A stretch of DNA of 64,000 nucleotides from Escherichia coli. Its GTDB lineage: Bacteria > Pseudomonadota > Gammaproteobacteria > Enterobacterales > Enterobacteriaceae. Within the stretch, counting starts at the first letter, position 1. Every line of letters begins with the position of its first letter. Positions 7,898 to 49,093 of this stretch are shown piece by piece. The notes beneath the pieces were generated by a model, which had not been told where the DNA came from, searched no databases, and saw only the letters and a program-made list of their open reading frames with translations. Location: assembly GCF_016026235.1 (NCBI RefSeq), contig NZ_CP065613.1; one strand, 5' to 3'. Position numbers and translations under genes: made by a program.

Positions 7898-9064
7898 TTA
7901 ATCATTGCCAAACAAGTCGCGAGTATAAACTTTATCTGCTACATCAGCCAGATCGGCAGACATACGGTTAGAAATAATAACATCAGCTTCTTGTTTGAAT
8001 GCATCCAAATCACGTACCACGCGCGACCGGAAAAAATCGTCCTCTTTCATCGCTGGCTCATAAACGATTACAGGAACGCCTTTCGCCTTGATTCGCTTCA
8101 TAATACCCTGAATCGAGGAAGCACGAAAATTGTCTGAACCACTCTTCATAATCAAACGATAGACGCCAACAACTTTCGGTTTACGTGCAAGGATAGAATC
8201 GGCAATAAAGTCTTTTCGCGTGCGGTTGGCATCAACAATTGCCGAAATCAGATTATTCGGCACAGATTGATAGTTTGCCAGTAACTGCTTGGTATCTTTC
8301 GGCAGACAATAACCTCCATAACCAAATGACGGATTGTTGTAGTGATTACCGATACGCGGATCAAAGCAAACCCCCTCAATAATCTGGCGGGAATTAAGCC
8401 CCAGACTTTCAGCATAACTATCTAGTTCATTGAAATAAGCTACACGCATCGCCAGATAGGTGTTGGCAAAAAGTTTAATCGCCTCAGCTTCCGTTGAGTC
8501 AGTAAACAACGTTGGAATATCTTGCTTAATAGCACCTTCTTGTAATAATGCTGCAAAACGTTCAGCGCGTTCAGACTGCTCACCAATCACAATGCGTGAT
8601 GGATGCAAGTTATCATAAAGTGCTTTCCCTTCGCGTAAAAACTCCGGCGAAAAGATCACATTTTCAATACCAAATCGTTCTTTAATGGACTCTGTAAAAC
8701 CAACAGGGATAGTTGATTTTATAATCATTACAGCGTTGGGATTAATTTCTGTCACATCACGGATGACCGCTTCCACGCTTGAGGTATTAAAATAATTTGT
8801 TTTTGGGTCATAATCGGTAGGCGTGGCAATAATAACGTAATCGGCATTTTTATACGCGTCATACTTATCTGTCGTAGCGCGGAAATTGAGCTCTTTAGTC
8901 GCCAGATACTCTTCAATCTCCTTATCAACAATCGGTGACAGCTTCTTGTTAAGCATGTCCACTTTGGCCTGAACGATATCCAATGCCACCACTTCGTGAT
9001 TTTGCGCAATCAGAATACCATTTGAAAGACCAACATAACCTGTACCTGAAATTGTTATTTTCAT
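7898..9064 (-). CDS. ugd: UDP-glucose 6-dehydrogenase
   Basis: ORF 7898-9091; start placed at [16 protein letters not shown] (NAD-binding GxGxxG); 388 aa from that start. Confidence 0.93.
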
Positions 9065-9267
9065 TAGCTCTGACTTCTTCCGATTAAACATTTAGAGTGG
9101 TCATTAATCCACCACCATAACTTCATCTACTGCGGGATTTTTAACGCTGATGTAGATGAACAGTCAAGGCAGCGATCCTGCTGTGCGGCTCTGTATTATA
9201 TCTCTTTTTTAACCCAAAATTATAAAAAAAGTCCATAACCTGCCGCTTTGTATAATAAAAAAGCCCG

Positions 9268-9279
9268 GAGGATTTCTCC
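9268..9279. repeat. Target-site duplication (left) of the IS element: GAGGATTTCTCC
   Basis: Identical 12-mer directly abuts both ends of the element (also at 10572-10583). Confidence 0.75.
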
Positions 9280-10571
9280 TGAGGGATCCCCAGAAAATTT
9301 AGTAAACCATTATCATATTGGTATACCGTTGCTGTAGAACTTTCAGCCCTGCGTCAAGTGACAGTGTGTTTAGTATGAGTGGAGAATGTCGAATCACATT
9401 CTCCGCCAGTTTTAATAACGAGATGACTCGCCTGTGCTTCACTGTATTTGCCTGATATTTATGATGTATCCCTTTGTTTTCCAGGCTGAAACCGCTTAAC
9501 CACATAATGATACTGGCTAATGTTGCGATCAGACTCAATACCGTGACCCGCCCGGATGAATGACTGGCACCAAACCGTAGTCCAAATCCCCAGCGAGGAT
9601 TTTTTTCATCCCTGAAATTTTGCTCAATTTGCATTCTACGGCTGTATAATTTCATTACCTGTTTTGGCGAGAACTCAGTACTGTTTGTGAAAATAAACCA
9701 TGGTGATTTCCCGGCAGTACGAGCTTTAGCCGTCACCGATGGTCTGGTTGCTCTTTCCTTCGAGCGTTTAAATCTACGACCTTTAGGCTTACTTTTATAA
9801 AGATAAAAATGCCCTTCATGTTGTGCATTTTTATCTCGACCCAGCAGGCCTTCACCTAAATAAATTGCTGTCGTTGATGCTTTTGTGCCTGAGTCCGACA
9901 CCTTTTCCCAGCCATTACCAACATTGTAATAATGATTGCCCAGTACCCGGCAAATATAGGTCCAGCCACGGGAGCGGAGCTGTTGGAACCATCGCCCCTG
10001 AAAACCGGCATCTGTAATAACAATGACATCAGTCCCGGGGGAAAAGCACTCAGCAAGCGATTCCAGAAAACGCTCATGTACATCTGCATTCGCTGTCTGT
10101 GATGATGGAACGACACAACTCATCAACGGTAAAGAACGCCCGTCACATGCCAGGCTTGCCCGCAAAAGCTGAAAACGAGAGGCATGATAAGCACTCCAGT
10201 CAATGAGTATCACAACACGAGACATTCCCCGCGTAATCTTTTGGGTAATTCGCTGAAAAATGGTGGAAACCTCATTTTGCAAATGTCGATTCCCCAACAG
10301 TCGATCCACCCGCTTTATTTTGTTTTTAACTGATGCCGTACCGGTTAAATGACGCCCGATACTGGTAAGTGTGAGGGAAGCGCCATTTATTACAGCATTA
10401 GTTGCGTCAATCAGTGATTTTTGACGGTAAAGATGCAAAGGGGCCAGTATATTGTTAAGGAAATTTTGGCATAATGAACGTGCAGGCATAGTGGTGATCT
10501 CCTTGAAATTGTTAGCACAATCAATTAGATCACATCTCACTATGCCTGTCTTGTTTTCTGGGGATTCCTCA
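9280..10571 (-). mobile_element. IS4-family (IS10-like) insertion sequence, about 1.29 kb, apparently intact
   Basis: Terminal inverted repeats TGAGGGATCCCCAGAAAA (9280-9297) and TGAGGAATCCCCAGAAAA (reverse complement of 10554-10571), 17/18 match; single transposase ORF; flanked by 12-bp direct repeats. Confidence 0.85.
9299..10489 (-). CDS. DDE transposase, IS4 family (IS10-like)
   Basis: ORF 9299-10594 extends beyond the IS end, so start placed at internal MPARSL (10489) preceded by AAGGAG; motifs KIKRVDRLLGNRHL, ITDAGF, YSRRMQIEQNFRDEK, HKYQANTVKHRRV parallel the IS10 transposase as recalled. Confidence 0.85.
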   Translation of the reverse strand: MPARSLCQNFLNNILAPLHLYRQKSLIDATNAVINGASLTLTSIGRHLTGTASVKNKIKRVDRLLGNRHLQNEVSTIFQRITQKITRGMSRVVILIDWSAYHASRFQLLRASLACDGRSLPLMSCVVPSSQTANADVHERFLESLAECFSPGTDVIVITDAGFQGRWFQQLRSRGWTYICRVLGNHYYNVGNGWEKVSDSGTKASTTAIYLGEGLLGRDKNAQHEGHFYLYKSKPKGRRFKRSKERATRPSVTAKARTAGKSPWFIFTNSTEFSPKQVMKLYSRRMQIEQNFRDEKNPRWGFGLRFGASHSSGRVTVLSLIATLASIIMWLSGFSLENKGIHHKYQANTVKHRRVISLLKLAENVIRHSPLILNTLSLDAGLKVLQQRYTNMIMVY

Positions 10572-10583
10572 GAGGATTTCTCC
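10572..10583. repeat. Target-site duplication (right) of the IS element: GAGGATTTCTCC
   Basis: Identical to 9268-9279. Confidence 0.75.
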
Positions 10584-10616
10584 GGGGTTTGCATTGATTA
10601 GTTGATTTAAATCAGA

Positions 10617-12023
10617 TTAATCCAGCCATTCGGTATGGAACACACCTTCTTTATCAATGCGCTTATAAGTATGTGCACCGAAATAGTCACGCTGTGCCTG
10701 GATCAGGTTCGCAGGAAGAACAGCGGCGCGGTAGCTGTCATAATAGGCAACCGCAGCGGCGAAGGTCGGAACCGGGATACCGTTCTGTACCGCATAAGCG
10801 ACGACATCGCGCAGCGCCTGCTGGTAGTCATCGGCAATTTGCTTGAAATACGGAGCCAGCAGCAGGTTAGCGATCTGCGGATTTTCGGCATAAGCATCGG
10901 TGATTTTCTGCAGGAACTGCGCACGGATAATGCAGCCAGCACGGAAAATCTTCGCGATTTCGCCATAGTTCAGATCCCAGTTGTACTCTTCAGACGCAGC
11001 ACGCAACTGAGAGAAGCCCTGGGCGTAAGAAACGATTTTGCCCAGATACAGAGCACGACGAACTTTTTCGATGAACTCAGCCTTGTCGCCTGCTGGCTGC
11101 GCTTGCGGACCAGACAGTACTTTGGACGCGGCAACACGCTGCTCTTTCAGAGAAGAGATGTATCGTGCAAACACAGACTCGGTAATGAGCGACAGCGGTT
11201 CACCGAGATCTAGCGCGCTTTGGCTGGTCCATTTACCGGTACCTTTGTTAGCCGCTTCATCCAGAATCACATCAACCAGGTAGTTACCGTCTTCATCTTT
11301 TTTAGTGAAGATGTCTTTGGTGATGTCGATCAGGTAGCTGCTTAGTTCACCATTATTCCACTCGGTAAAGGTCTGCGCCAGTTCATCGTTGGTGAGGTTC
11401 AGGCCACCTTTAAGCAGAGAATAGGCTTCAGCAATCAGCTGCATATCTCCGTATTCAATACCGTTGTGAACCATCTTCACATAGTGACCTGCGCCATCGG
11501 CACCAATATAGGTAACACATGGCTCCCCATCTTCAGCCACTGCGGCGATTTTGGTCAGGATCGGTGCGACCAGTTCATAGGCTTCTTTCTGGCCACCAGG
11601 CATGATGGAAGGTCCTTTCAGCGCACCTTCTTCGCCACCAGAAACACCGCTACCGATAAAGTTAAAGCCTTCTGCAGACAGCTCACGGTTACGACGAATG
11701 GTGTCCAGGAAGAAAGTGTTACCACCATCAATGATGATGTCACCTTTATCGAGGTATGGCTTGAGAGAATCAATAGCAGCATCCGTGCCTGCACCTGCTT
11801 TCACCATTAACAGGATGCGACGAGGCGTTTCCAGAGATTCAACAAACTCTTTTATTGTATAGTAAGGAAATAACTTCTTATCCGAATGAGTAGCTATAAT
11901 TTTTTCTGTTTTTTCACGAGAACGGTTAAAAATTGAAACAGTATAGCCGTGACTTTCGATATTTAGTGCAAGATTACGCCCCATTACCGCCATACCGATA
12001 ACCCCAATCTGTTTTTTTGACAT
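10617..12023 (-). CDS. gnd: 6-phosphogluconate dehydrogenase (decarboxylating)
   Basis: ORF 10617-12029; start placed at [21 protein letters not shown]; ends ...GVFHTEWLD. Confidence 0.95.
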
Positions 12024-15002: not shown

Positions 15003-15348
15003 AAAACTCCTTATATTTCATCTATCTGCCTAGGATATAAAACAAGAATATAAACACATTATAAATAGTATAAACTGTGAAAGAATAAAAATTTAGAATA
15101 GTTAAGCCCAATGTTACTATAAAAATACAATATGCAAGTATACGTTATTTTTCTAAACATCTCGACATATTGTATGAGTCTAACACTATATTGCATTTTT
15201 TTCGTGTAAATTATGTTCTAGTGGTGTCAGTAATTCGAGCAATTTATGAGGCCTTTTATTCTTGTACAGTATGCAATATTGAGCCTGTTTATGATTGACA
15301 TATTCAGATTTTCAAAGAGCAATTCTTCATTAAACTCAATAAACGGCT

Positions 15349-15634
15349 ATCTCAGTGATCGGTTAAAGCGCTCACAGATGGTGTTCATTTTCGGCGTATC
15401 GAGATAAGCCTATTGGTGCCTGATAGCGGCTTCCTGTAGCTTTTTGTCAAATTTTCCCAGGAACTCTTCCCCATAATCGGGTATATTCTGGTTGATTCCA
15501 ACAGGTAACAACCGAGCTTGATGGCAGAAGAAACTCATGATTACATCACTGTTAAGCGACGTTACCGCCACCGCCAAAGCGTAGTTGCTGCGTTCGTCAA
15601 TCACGGTAATAACATAACGCCGATTCTGAGCTCA
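15349..15634 (-). pseudogene. Remnant of an rve-type (integrase-core DDE) transposase gene, frameshifted and truncated
   Basis: Minus-strand frames give ...RRYVITVIDERSNYALAVAV... (VIDxxSR-like first catalytic-D region) and, in another frame, ...PKMNTICERFNRSLR* (xERFNRxL C-terminal integrase-core motif); local G+C looks higher than the surrounding cluster. Confidence 0.45.
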
Positions 15635-15944
15635 ATATAAGCTCACCGGTCTTTAGCGGGCTAATAGTACCTTGGACTTGAAGTCTGGGAACCCAGTTAC
15701 ACCAGTATTAGCCACATTTTATCATGTGCTGCCTAGCTCATTCCTCCAATAGTGGAGACGCTCGGGCAGGCCAAATGCTACTGTTCACACTACAGATTCA
15801 GACGGTCAAAAATCTGTTCTTTTCCAAGGTTGAGAAGTCCTATTCTAATTCATCATATTTCTTTCAAAATTTCTGGATGTCATAGTTTTGTAAGACATAC
15901 TAGAAAGATTTACTACTTGAGATAAGCACTTCCGAGCCTATATA

Positions 15945-16307
15945 TTAAACGCGTATTGATACACAAAAATTTTCTGCGGATGCATTGATTCCATGTCTTT
16001 CCCTAAAATGCAGGGTTTTCATTCTTAATTTTGCAATATCAGGCATGGCATTGTATTCCATCGCATAGATTGTTGCACGGTAATGCCCGAAACACCTGAC
16101 GCCGATATGTTGGTTCAACATAACAATCTCTCCTTTCTTATCTGGAGACAATTGCAACATCTCTGAAAACTTACACTCTGCCCATCGTGTACATAACCAA
16201 AGACAACAGAAATATGTCACGCCTTTTTCCAAATTCCAATTTATATTCCTTACTCTTATAACACAAGGAGTATCTGAATATATAAGAGTGAAGGAGTGCT
16301 TTGGCAA
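15945..16307 (-). CDS. Hypothetical protein or gene fragment of unknown function
   Basis: 120-aa ORF in the decayed segment between gne and wzy; no recognisable motifs; may be a remnant. Confidence 0.25.
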   Translation of the reverse strand: MPKHSFTLIYSDTPCVIRVRNINWNLEKGVTYFCCLWLCTRWAECKFSEMLQLSPDKKGEIVMLNQHIGVRCFGHYRATIYAMEYNAMPDIAKLRMKTLHFRERHGINASAENFCVSIRV

Positions 16308-16752
16308 AAATATTTAATTCAAAGATATAAAACACAATCGATTTAGTATCAAAAGATTACTCAGTAATCTTTCACCAAATAAATTAGTTCAAAATAACAC
16401 TACAGCAATGGCAATAAAACCATTCCATGAAATAGCAACATAAACACGCAAATAGAATTTCCACGTAAATTTATAACACTTACCAATCCAAAACATTATT
16501 TATTATAGATTGTATTCATGGGATTATCACCTGGTTCAGTTATAGATTTGTGATCTATGTAGTTCACTATTCTTACAGTTCTCAAAAAACTTAAATTAAA
16601 TTGTTGCGCTATTACCCTATAGTCTTTAAATACCCATAAAAACAAAGGCAAAAACCAATTTGTTTTACAGATATCTAGAATAAGATAATATGTCAACAAT
16701 TAACAAGTTACTACTATTGTTTGTTAATAAAAACCTGCAATTAAAATAATAA

Positions 16753-18015
16753 TCATGCATTAACCGAACCCCTTCTTATTAATCTTTTTTTATGACAAAT
16801 ATAAAAAGATGAAAATATATATATATATATTATTTTCATATATGCAACATTCAAAAATATAACCTCGCCTTTATAATGAAAAGAAAAACTGAGTATCGTA
16901 ATCATTAATACAACTATTTTAGGTTTGATGCTATTAGCAGCATAAATAGTCAAAAAAATAAAAAATAAAAAATAAAAAATAACCGATGGTACCGCACCCA
17001 AAAATAATGCTAACCGCATAAATCCAGCATCGGTCCCGAGATAATATGTCCCATCCTTTAACGTATAGTACCCATCACCAATGAAGATCTGTTTTTCTGT
17101 TAACGGAAAATACATATTAAATAATGCATCTGTAGATGTTGTTGATAACTTTCCTGAATCTAAATAATAATATAACATTTGAAAAGAATAATCCGAATAT
17201 TTTTTCAAGATATCATAAACATGTTCATTTAAAAAAAATCTCCAAAAAATAAATAAAAACAGAGATACATAAATCAAAATTTGAAGCGCCCGATAAAACT
17301 TCTTTTTATAATCAGAGCAAATAAAACTATATACCCCTCCGAGGACAAACCCCAAAACAGCCGTACGCCCAGCAGAAATTGACGCGAACAGCAAGAGTAT
17401 GATAAAAAATAATTTAAAAAAGAAAGGAATATTACAGTCTTCCTCATTAAACCAAACAATTGAAAGAAAAGATAATAATGACATAATTATAGCAAGACCA
17501 AAGGCAACAGAACCTGATATACCTAATCCCCTGATGCCTCCATATGTATTACTCATAAATTCTATTTCTTCTTTTGTTCTAATAATACTTTGAATATAAG
17601 CATTTATACTGGGAAAAAACATCATCAGAATAATAAAAAAGGATTGTAAGAGGGCAATTAGAAAAAACAATTTCAACACATTATCATTGTTATGCTGGAT
17701 TAAGTGCGACGCAATTATAACAGAGCTGAATAATGCAGCGAAATTATTAAAGATAACCCCCATGATAGATAAATCTCCTGTACCATTTAATACCAATGAA
17801 ATACAAGAAAAAAAGAGCATGCAGGCCAAAGACAAAAACGCAATAAAAAATATTCTTGTACTTATTAGACTAAAAAAAACAGTCCTTATCCTGATATTTG
17901 TAATTAAATAAATCAAGGAGAAAATATATATAAGATAGCCTGAATTAAAAAAAACAGGGATGCTAAAAGCAAACACAAATAAAAACAACAAAAATACATC
18001 AAAAAAAACCTTCAT
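16753..18015 (-). CDS. wzy: O-antigen polymerase
   Basis: 420 aa, highly hydrophobic multi-TM protein with a larger hydrophilic loop, adjacent to glycosyltransferases and wzx; identity as Wzy is by elimination (the other polytopic protein has the Wzx pattern). Confidence 0.7.
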   Translation of the reverse strand: MKVFFDVFLLFLFVFAFSIPVFFNSGYLIYIFSLIYLITNIRIRTVFFSLISTRIFFIAFLSLACMLFFSCISLVLNGTGDLSIMGVIFNNFAALFSSVIIASHLIQHNNDNVLKLFFLIALLQSFFIILMMFFPSINAYIQSIIRTKEEIEFMSNTYGGIRGLGISGSVAFGLAIIMSLLSFLSIVWFNEEDCNIPFFFKLFFIILLLFASISAGRTAVLGFVLGGVYSFICSDYKKKFYRALQILIYVSLFLFIFWRFFLNEHVYDILKKYSDYSFQMLYYYLDSGKLSTTSTDALFNMYFPLTEKQIFIGDGYYTLKDGTYYLGTDAGFMRLALFLGAVPSVIFYFLFFIFLTIYAANSIKPKIVVLMITILSFSFHYKGEVIFLNVAYMKIIYIYIFSSFYICHKKRLIRRGSVNA

Positions 18016-24800: not shown

Positions 24801-24839
24801 CACGCTACCGCCCCTGGCTTTACAGCTACCAGAGCACTG
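24801..24839 (-). promoter_or_regulatory. 39-bp JUMPStart element with ops (GGCGGTAGCGTG) antitermination site upstream of the O-antigen operon
   Basis: + strand reads cacgctaccgcccctggctttacagctaccagagcactg, the reverse complement of the JUMPStart consensus as recalled; ops 12-mer at 24801-24812. Confidence 0.85.
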
Positions 24840-34438: not shown

Positions 34439-34494
34439 ATCGTTACCCTTTTTCAGGCAATAGTTGGCCCTGACCGAAGCGGCCAATTTTATTT

Positions 34495-49054: not shown

Positions 49055-49093
49055 CACGCTACCGCCCCTGGCTTTTTAGCTACCAATACACTG
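49055..49093 (-). promoter_or_regulatory. JUMPStart-like element with ops site upstream of wza
   Basis: + strand cacgctaccgcccctggctttttagctaccaatacactg; same ops 12-mer (reverse complement) at 49055-49066; lies in the wza leader. Confidence 0.8.

Follow-up and report, generated by a model that had tools for sequence, protein, structure and literature searches.

ISEc60 in the gnd-ugd spacer of an Escherichia coli genome: boundaries, target and likely consequences of the insertion

An insertion between gnd and ugd

The window is the whole stretch of Escherichia coli DNA that was analysed, 64,000 nucleotides from contig NZ_CP065613.1 of assembly GCF_016026235.1. Its genes lie in the order his, wzzB, an epimerase gene, ugd, an insertion sequence (IS), gnd, an O143-type O-antigen cluster, galF and the colanic acid genes. 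The gnd-ugd spacer holds one intact IS, and gnd, the IS and ugd are all on the minus strand (gnd stop at 10617, ugd start at 9064), in agreement with a first-pass annotation that had placed an insertion between these two co-oriented genes. A perfect 12-bp direct repeat, GAGGATTTCTCC, is found at 9268-9279 and 10572-10583 and abuts terminal inverted repeats (TGAGGGATCCCCAGAAAA and TTTTCTGGGGATTCCTCA) that are identical at 17 of 18 positions. The features of the region are as follows, with the element given the boundaries that we consider most likely.

7898..9064, minus strand: ugd (UDP-glucose 6-dehydrogenase); start 214 nt from the IS end, of which the original spacer contributes 204 nt and the duplication the other 10
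9253..9268, minus strand: downstream remnant of the gnd terminator, CCGGGCTTTTTTATT, after the right end of the IS, as judged against the empty site
9269..9278, plus-strand reading: probable target duplication AGGATTTCTC, ugd-side copy (the 12-mer of the first-pass annotation being 9268-9279)
9279..10572, minus strand: ISEc60, complete copy with revised probable boundaries, 1,294 bp (the earlier 9280-10571, extended by one base in either direction)
9279..9297, plus strand: right (transposase-distal) inverted repeat, 5'-CTGAGGGATCCCCAGAAAA read inward; it differs from the left repeat at one position, and this difference creates a GATC (Dam) site
9299..10489, minus strand: transposase gene of 396 codons and a stop; D97, D160 and E289 have aligned counterparts in IS10A
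10483..10548, minus strand: 66-nt hairpin near the left end, with the AUG and its Shine-Dalgarno sequence in the 3' arm; corresponds in position to the fold-back and RNA-OUT stem-loop of IS10
10554..10572, minus strand: left (transposase-proximal) inverted repeat, 5'-CTGAGGAATCCCCAGAAAA, with no GATC
10573..10582, no strand assigned: probable target duplication AGGATTTCTC, gnd-side copy (earlier 12-mer 10572-10583)
10583..10587, minus strand: upstream remnant of the split terminator stem, CCCCG, with the IS now next to it (compared with the empty site at L001 3565-3583)
10617..12023, minus strand: gnd (6-phosphogluconate dehydrogenase); stop codon separated from the IS by 34 nt plus the 10-bp duplication

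The first-pass annotation had proposed a comparison of the gnd-ugd spacer with the empty site in related strains. A search with positions 8700-11100 found this site in E. coli D10, STLEFF_47 and 200177, in which the flanks are 100% identical to those of the window and contiguous over 1,097 bp, so that exactly 1,304 bp have been added in the window (2,401 - 1,304 = 1,097). The spacer of the empty-site genomes is 248 bp, corresponding to 34 + 10 + 204 bp of the window, and in the alignment the D10 junction consists of a single copy of the 12-mer, with no IS and nothing else. Since D10 has identical flanks, one 12-mer and no IS, the duplication is not a chance repeat. This result is proof that 1,304 bp were gained by simple insertion at a target site that is unoccupied in otherwise identical genomes, and the earlier description of a simple and probably recent transposition with intact duplications stands.

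The transposase ORF is uninterrupted, which removes one ground on which the first-pass annotation would have been withdrawn, and AAGGAG lies 9 nt before the ATG. The mechanically delimited ORF encodes 431 aa and starts outside the element; the real gene begins with the ATG at 10489 and ends at 9299. The single DDE transposase ORF with its own Shine-Dalgarno sequence was thus correctly recognized, with a length of 396 aa (CDS 9299-10489) and not 397 aa. The protein scored 360 bits against the IS4-family model NF033591 of NCBIfam (cut-off 152) and only 46.9 bits against NF033592, a second IS4-family model (cut-off 115), and it matched Pfam DDE_Tnp_1 with an E value of 2.9e-20. Identity was 36% over 372 aa to the transposase of IS10A (E value 5e-76) and 52% to that of ISSfl1. 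The YREK motif (Y-2-R-3-E-6-K), read from the IS10A alignment, is Y282-x2-R285-x3-E289-x6-K296, and the element therefore has the single-ORF DDE transposase with YREK signature that characterizes the IS4 family. Named elements in a sample of 40 of the 3,546 matching plasmid records were ISSfl1, ISVsa5, IS10A and ISEc29. The NF033591 score, the DDE_Tnp_1 match and the level of identity to IS10A agree with the earlier assignment to an intact, IS10-like member of the IS4 family that is not IS10 itself.

Over 1,292 bp the element is 99.9% identical to RefSeq copies labelled 'IS4-like element ISEc60 family transposase', and its transposase is identical (100%) to a protein of E. coli CFSAN029787; an identical transposase is encoded in 512 blocks of public assemblies. 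By its sequence, window 9279-10572 is one complete copy of the already named ISEc60 (IS4 family, IS10 subgroup), sharing with copies elsewhere the same DNA (99.9%) and the identical 396-aa transposase, so that the insertion site is the sole difference, and this copy is presumably active. The name ISEc60 was absent from the first-pass annotation. Of 5,426 complete E. coli genomes, only 14 have full copies of ISEc60, which are found on plasmids as well as chromosomes, and a single genome has up to 39 matching places. The searchable literature yielded no more than passing mentions of the element, in two papers. As a joint reading of identity, geometry and consequences, we put at about 0.85 the probability that the whole feature is an ordinary insertion of this already known IS. 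The element being a catalogued one, what the present analysis adds is its name, the corrected ends and duplication, the gnd terminator as target, and a leader hairpin of the IS10 type.

Ends of the element and length of the target duplication

The first-pass annotation had described an element of 1,292 bp with 18-bp inverted repeats matching at 17 of 18 positions and a 12-bp target duplication. The match between the repeats, the perfect 12-bp repeat and the reality of a duplication were all confirmed. The most likely geometry is nevertheless an IS at 9279-10572 (1,294 bp) with 19-bp inverted repeats (18/19 identical) and a 10-bp target duplication, the true ends probably being 5'-CTGAGG...CCTCAG-3', as in IS10 and ISSfl1. 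The repeat would appear to be 12 bp long because the 10-bp duplication is extended on each side by one IS base and one identical target base, and this is a regular outcome since the preferred target, G-GGR-N4-YCC-C, always puts a G and a C beside the 10-mer. The earlier caveat that the 12-mers might turn out to be part of the inverted repeats thus applies to one base per end, and a true duplication is still present. In every ISEc60 copy examined a G and a C stand beside the 10-mer, so that 10 and 12 bp are not separable from these copies, and for this reason the 10-bp reading is taken from relatives of the element.

Among relatives with the same termini, a C precedes TGAGG and a G follows CCTCA invariably, whatever the target. 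We scanned one genome per species from 100,044 species (2 x 298 Gb) with the end motif TTTTCTGGGGATNCCTCA and obtained 121 matches, 104 of which had G as the next base, followed by a variable base. The 17 matches without this G came from unrelated taxa (Deinococcus, Rhodococcus, Nitrospina and others) in which the interior sequence of the family was absent; by our own arithmetic, about 35 matches to 17 fixed bases would be expected by chance in 2 x 298 Gb. Three Photorhabdus copies (L018, L039 and L116), whose transposases are 50-52% identical to that of ISEc60, show repeats of only 0-2 bp if the ends are set at TGAGG...CCTCA and perfect 10-bp repeats (CCCCATAGTA, CCCTGTCGGG and CCCCACGGGG) if they are set at CTGAGG...CCTCAG. 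With CT...AG ends, ISSfl1 has an unambiguous 9-bp repeat, CCTGAAGGG. Two contig ends of Kosakonia oryziphila (L133 and L135) rebuild a terminator with a 13-bp stem and repeat exactly 10 bp (GGGGAAACCT), with an A on one side and a T on the other; the element there, a close relative of ISEc60, shares its end sequences with the E. coli G6/7 element, and the latter has a transposase with 88% identity to that of ISEc60.

Were the element instead 1,292 bp long with 18-bp inverted repeats, ISEc60 would make duplications of 12 and sometimes 13 bp. Nine ISEc60-type copies do have perfect 12-bp repeats (one of 13 bp) abutting TGAGG and CCTCA, and duplications of 10-13 bp occur in other subgroups of the IS4 family (PMC2266710). 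We regard this geometry as very unlikely, since the C and the G are invariant at every genuine end of the lineage, including those at targets whose first base is C, A or T, and since the repeats of the three Photorhabdus copies and ISSfl1 would shrink to 0-2 bp, while a shift of one base gives perfect repeats of 9-10 bp. The Kosakonia pair would in addition need mismatches at exactly the two outermost positions, and 5'-CT is the end type of the IS10 subgroup (PMC2266710, Table 1). With the preferred ends, the ISEc60 transposase would make 10-bp staggered cuts in its target. One ISEc60-type copy has an 11-bp duplication (13 bp apparent), and the stagger is therefore not strictly fixed.

The IS10 subgroup has been defined by a size of 1,200-1,350 bp, 5'-CT ends and 9-bp direct repeats (PMC2266710, Table 1), and target duplications in the IS4 family as a whole are around 10 bp, about one helical turn (PMC2266710). 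ISEc60 falls within the subgroup by its size (1,294 bp), by a transposase that groups with that of IS10 (36% over 372 aa) and, provided that the IS is taken to include the invariant C and G at its flanks, by its 5'-CT termini. It departs from the 9 bp listed for the subgroup (PMC2266710) in its duplications, which measure 10 bp at 11 sites and 11 bp at another. A 10-bp duplication (12 bp apparent), confirmed by the empty site, is that expected of the family. The 12-13-bp repeats and the G-run/C-run target had suggested an element of the IS4 or IS186 type, which we rejected, the transposase, ends and leader hairpin being IS10-like. Similarity of the flanks among copies had likewise suggested a longer element; the empty site shows only 1,304 bp to have been added, and the flanks vary between copies. 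Correct boundaries (CT...AG with a 10-bp duplication) matter for the annotation of the IS and for the mapping of its insertions.

The target hairpin and the transposase leader

In the empty-site genomes the minus strand reads CCCGGAG-AAATC-CTCCGGG-CTTTTTTATT, 27 nt past the gnd stop. This hairpin was called by a terminator scan and has a folding energy of -13.3 kcal/mol, and the IS occupies the loop and inner stem of what is thus the intrinsic terminator of gnd. The first-pass annotation had not seen that a terminator hairpin was the target. We examined the target preference of ISEc60 and its closest relatives in 11 independent 10-bp sites and one 11-bp site; the 10-bp sites gave the consensus (G)GGR-A/T-rich N4-YCC(C), in which positions 1 and 8 are nearly invariant. 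Of 10 sites that were reconstructed, about 7 have the duplication lying across the loop of a GC-rich hairpin, and in several of these a T run follows. More distant relatives have CSC-N3/4-GSG palindromes as targets, including repeated REP-like sequences in Xenorhabdus and Enterobacter. Symmetric GC-rich targets are a known trait of the IS4 family, with IS10, IS231A and IS186 as examples.

These data allow a tentative proposal, to which we give rather less than even odds, that ISEc60 and its close relatives form an IS10-like sub-lineage with a 10-bp stagger that homes to the loops of GC-rich hairpins, especially those of intrinsic terminators, and possibly inserts mostly in the direction of the gene that the terminator serves. 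No description of a sub-lineage combining a 10-bp stagger with homing to terminator hairpins was found in the searchable literature. If such a sub-lineage exists, each insertion would cost the host a terminator and expose the transposase gene to read-through, which its fold-back hairpin would neutralize. With a preference for terminator hairpins, expansions of ISEc60 (up to 39 places per genome) would remove host terminators and not genes, and the loss of terminators at many loci could alter 3'-end formation and read-through.

The 66-nt hairpin at 10483-10548 is stable on both strands: folding of the plus strand gives -34.8 kcal/mol (z = -6.3) and that of the minus strand -35.0 kcal/mol (z = -5.8). 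Taken by itself, the 3' half on the transposase strand is unstructured (-1.7 kcal/mol). It is conserved in 17 aligned relatives from E. coli, Shigella, Kosakonia, Photorhabdus, Xenorhabdus, Serratia, Enterobacter and others, among which 93% of the alignment cells pair. Compensatory changes are seen in 6 pairs, compared with 2.3 +/- 0.9 in shuffled alignments and 0-3 with the partner slid. Size, place and covariation make it a candidate for an RNA-OUT-like stem-loop antisense to the start of the transposase gene. Membership in the Rfam RNA-OUT family was considered and rejected after a permissive Rfam scan and a scan of two relatives: RF00240 (gathering threshold 41 bits) gave no hit at E<=1 in ISEc60, an 85% relative or ISSfl1, and the positive control, IS10A, scored 85.9 bits. 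Rfam places the RNA-OUT of IS10A in the equivalent position, its 5' end lying 7 nt inside the ATG.

Transcripts entering IS10 from outside fold back and are not translated, and an antisense RNA is made from the opposite strand. From the structure, conservation and position of the ISEc60 hairpin, control of this kind would apply here as well. Transcripts reading in from gnd would carry both arms of the hairpin, burying the Shine-Dalgarno sequence and the AUG so that the transposase would not be translated; a transcript initiated inside the hairpin loop would be translatable, and the opposite strand could yield an RNA-OUT-like antisense RNA. A consensus scan across the IS and its junctions returned no promoter that would serve the transposase or an antisense RNA. 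By eye, candidate promoters may be seen in TGTGATC/TCTAAT around 10529-10534 and in TGGCATAAT at 10467-10475 on the plus strand. A GATC is present in the transposase-distal end only, and IS10A, ISSfl1 and the 85% relative have the same asymmetry. Transposition of IS10 is under Dam control, and by analogy the right-end GATC suggests that ISEc60 is too.

ISEc60 resembles IS10 (IS10R of Tn10; IS10A) in having a single transposase of the DDE/YREK type, about 400 aa long (36% identity; D97 and the YREK block align), ends of the form CTGA-GAATCCCC, a symmetric target preference and, as in IS10A, GATC at the transposase-distal end and a stem-loop across the start codon, where Rfam places RNA-OUT. The target of IS10 is NGCTNAGCN. 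ISEc60 differs from it in a duplication of 10 and not 9 bp, in a GGR-N4-YCC target as against GCTNAGC, in a hairpin that the RNA-OUT covariance model does not detect and in a leader that is about 24 nt shorter. Closer relatives are ISSfl1 of the Shigella flexneri virulence plasmid and elements of Photorhabdus, Xenorhabdus and Serratia, which have transposases 50-53% identical to that of ISEc60, near-identical 19-bp termini (CTGAGGNATCCCCAGAAAA; the ISSfl1 right end, TTTTGTGGGG, has one mismatch), the same conserved hairpin and GC-rich palindromes as targets. Unlike ISEc60, ISSfl1 makes a 9-bp duplication, and the Photorhabdus elements, with 10-bp duplications, have CCC-N4-GGG targets of the opposite polarity. 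IS231A has the target consensus GGG(N)5CCC, and IS186 has GGGG(N)6-7CCCC. By these descriptions, both elements share with ISEc60 a target made of a G run, a spacer and a C run, and duplications of 10-12 bp, and both are set apart from it by their 5'-CA ends and their place in other subgroups of the IS4 family. A literature search for the IS231A target consensus found nothing; the insertion specificity of IS231 is mentioned in PMC2266710.

Effect on the neighbouring genes and age of the insertion

Neither junction in the window was called as a terminator in the terminator scan. The gnd-side junction lacks a hairpin followed by a U run, and the ugd-side junction forms a different hairpin, from the IS end and the duplication, that is not adjacent to a U run. 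The gnd terminator thus appears to have been lost at both junctions with no new barrier added. The first-pass annotation had suggested that the IS might uncouple ugd from upstream transcription; since gnd had a canonical terminator before the insertion, ugd was presumably largely uncoupled from gnd already, and the insertion removes that terminator instead of adding a barrier. Its second suggestion, an outward promoter, likewise found no support. A scan across the IS and its junctions found no convincing outward promoter toward ugd, and the only promoter-like site facing that gene, TCTACA-18-GATAAT on the minus strand at 9338-9309 (9 of 12 positions matching), is within chance expectation, five promoter-like sites having been found compared with 3.3 +/- 1.8 in shuffled sequence. 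By analogy with IS10, the strong outward promoter would face gnd and not ugd. The 204 bp next to ugd are unchanged from the empty site, and with these untouched and no convincing new promoter facing the gene, any effect on UDP-glucuronate supply is probably small.

A material change in ugd expression, and through it in UDP-GlcA, UDP-GalA and the O antigen, could arise from read-through, from a promoter in the right end of the IS or from the displacement of a far-upstream activator site. With no canonical terminator at either junction, gnd or IS transcripts can run toward ugd, and the site at 9338-9309 is a weak promoter-like sequence that points the same way. The Salmonella ugd gene has a regulated promoter of its own, where a site for PhoP lies 145 nt before the start of transcription (PMC3335776). 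A site of this type could fall near the insertion point, 214 nt from the ATG. An amidoligase in the O143-type cluster and a neighbouring gene for a UDP-GlcA epimerase-like protein suggest that the O antigen of this strain probably needs ugd, a view to which the O143 structure contributes. We nonetheless judge such a change unlikely. Promoter-like sites are at the chance level, the junction as read from the sequence creates no hybrid -35/-10 pair, and the ugd-proximal 204 bp are unaltered. Read-through RNA would in addition stay untranslated owing to the fold-back hairpin; untranslated RNA of this kind is exposed to Rho-dependent termination, here over 1.2 kb. A search for PmrA boxes in the gnd-ugd spacer was also negative, a result that is uninformative on the E. 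coli ugd promoter. With the gnd-ugd terminator lost and an O143-type O antigen that probably needs ugd, LPS might conceivably be affected to a modest degree. The O-antigen locus and its surroundings commonly receive insertions, and the importance of this one lies mostly in annotation.

The same insertion is present in GCA_014155105.1 (L139), which matches the window over 7,364 bp at 100% identity, including the IS. Among 27 contigs with the ugd allele of the window, about 3 contain it, the others having an empty site. Because its duplications are perfect, its flanks are identical to the empty site and it is shared with GCA_014155105.1, the insertion is fairly recent, yet older than this single genome. 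Recombination is frequent near the O-antigen locus, and this strain might have received the whole gnd-IS-ugd segment by descent or by recombinational import, with no transposition of the IS in the strain itself. The identical 7.4-kb segment with the IS in L139 and the presence of the insertion in about 3 of 27 contigs mean that the event predates this genome, and genomes whose O-antigen cluster is about 100% identical match the colanic acid side of the window at only about 98%. We consider this history somewhat unlikely, and it bears only on the time and place of the event: the empty site and the duplication still prove transposition into this sequence.

Inverted repeats and reading frame of ISEc60

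The inverted repeats of ISEc60 differ by a sole mismatch, which gives the transposase-distal end a GATC (window 9285-9288 versus 10563-10566), and the same asymmetry was found in IS10A, in ISSfl1 and in the 85% relative (ends at loci L014, L016 and L017). In the ISEc60 leader hairpin, each arm of the inner stem also contains GATC. The transposase frame continues without a stop across the entire left IS end into the gnd-IS spacer (window 9299-10594, minus strand), giving an extended ORF of 431 aa from the ATG at 10594. No Shine-Dalgarno sequence was found upstream of this minus-strand ATG; translation arriving from outside the IS would produce a transposase with an N-terminal extension.

Flanks of other ISEc60 copies and of relatives

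A tandem pair of ISEc60 copies occurs in assembly GCA_031665585.1 (L004 1419-4014, equivalent to L005). A lone 12-mer, GGGGATTTACCC, separates the two copies, while GGGGATTTTCCC occupies the outer flanks. This arrangement looks like a second ISEc60 insertion into the target remade by the first, with the middle 12-mer altered at one base.

Full-length ISEc60 was also present at 1419-2710 in two loci of GCA_031665325.1 (L008 and L010). When the left and right flanks of each of these elements were compared, there was no match and hence no target duplication. Such mismatched flanks are the signature of recombination between ISEc60 copies, which would imply IS-mediated rearrangements in a many-copy genome.

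Relatives with identical 19-bp ends had recurrent flanking sequence, for example GCCCnnnGGGAGAGGGT... and GCGCnnnGCGGGGAGATAT..., in the following loci:

Enterobacter, L052-L058 and L074-L076
Xenorhabdus griffiniae, L087-L095
Pragia fontium, L122-L127

Dispersed REP-like palindromes appear to be the homing sites of the relatives in these three groups; draft assemblies break at these relatives.

O143-type O-antigen cluster and RNA motifs

The following additional features were located in the window, the RNA motifs by Rfam:

about 15200-16400, decayed IS481-family transposase remnant between galE and wzy, within the O143-type O-antigen cluster
24801-24839 (-) and 49055-49093 (-), two JUMPstart motifs upstream of the O-antigen and colanic-acid clusters
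34443-34492 (-), one algC RNA motif at the phosphomannomutase gene start

All four complete genomes sharing the O143-type cluster carry the IS481-family remnant with 99.5-99.6% identity, so the remnant is an old resident. The O143-family wzy (window 16753-18015) is an intact ORF of 420 aa, whereas in the cluster-sharing strain 2017.15.02CC it is annotated as frameshifted (L013 17304-18385).
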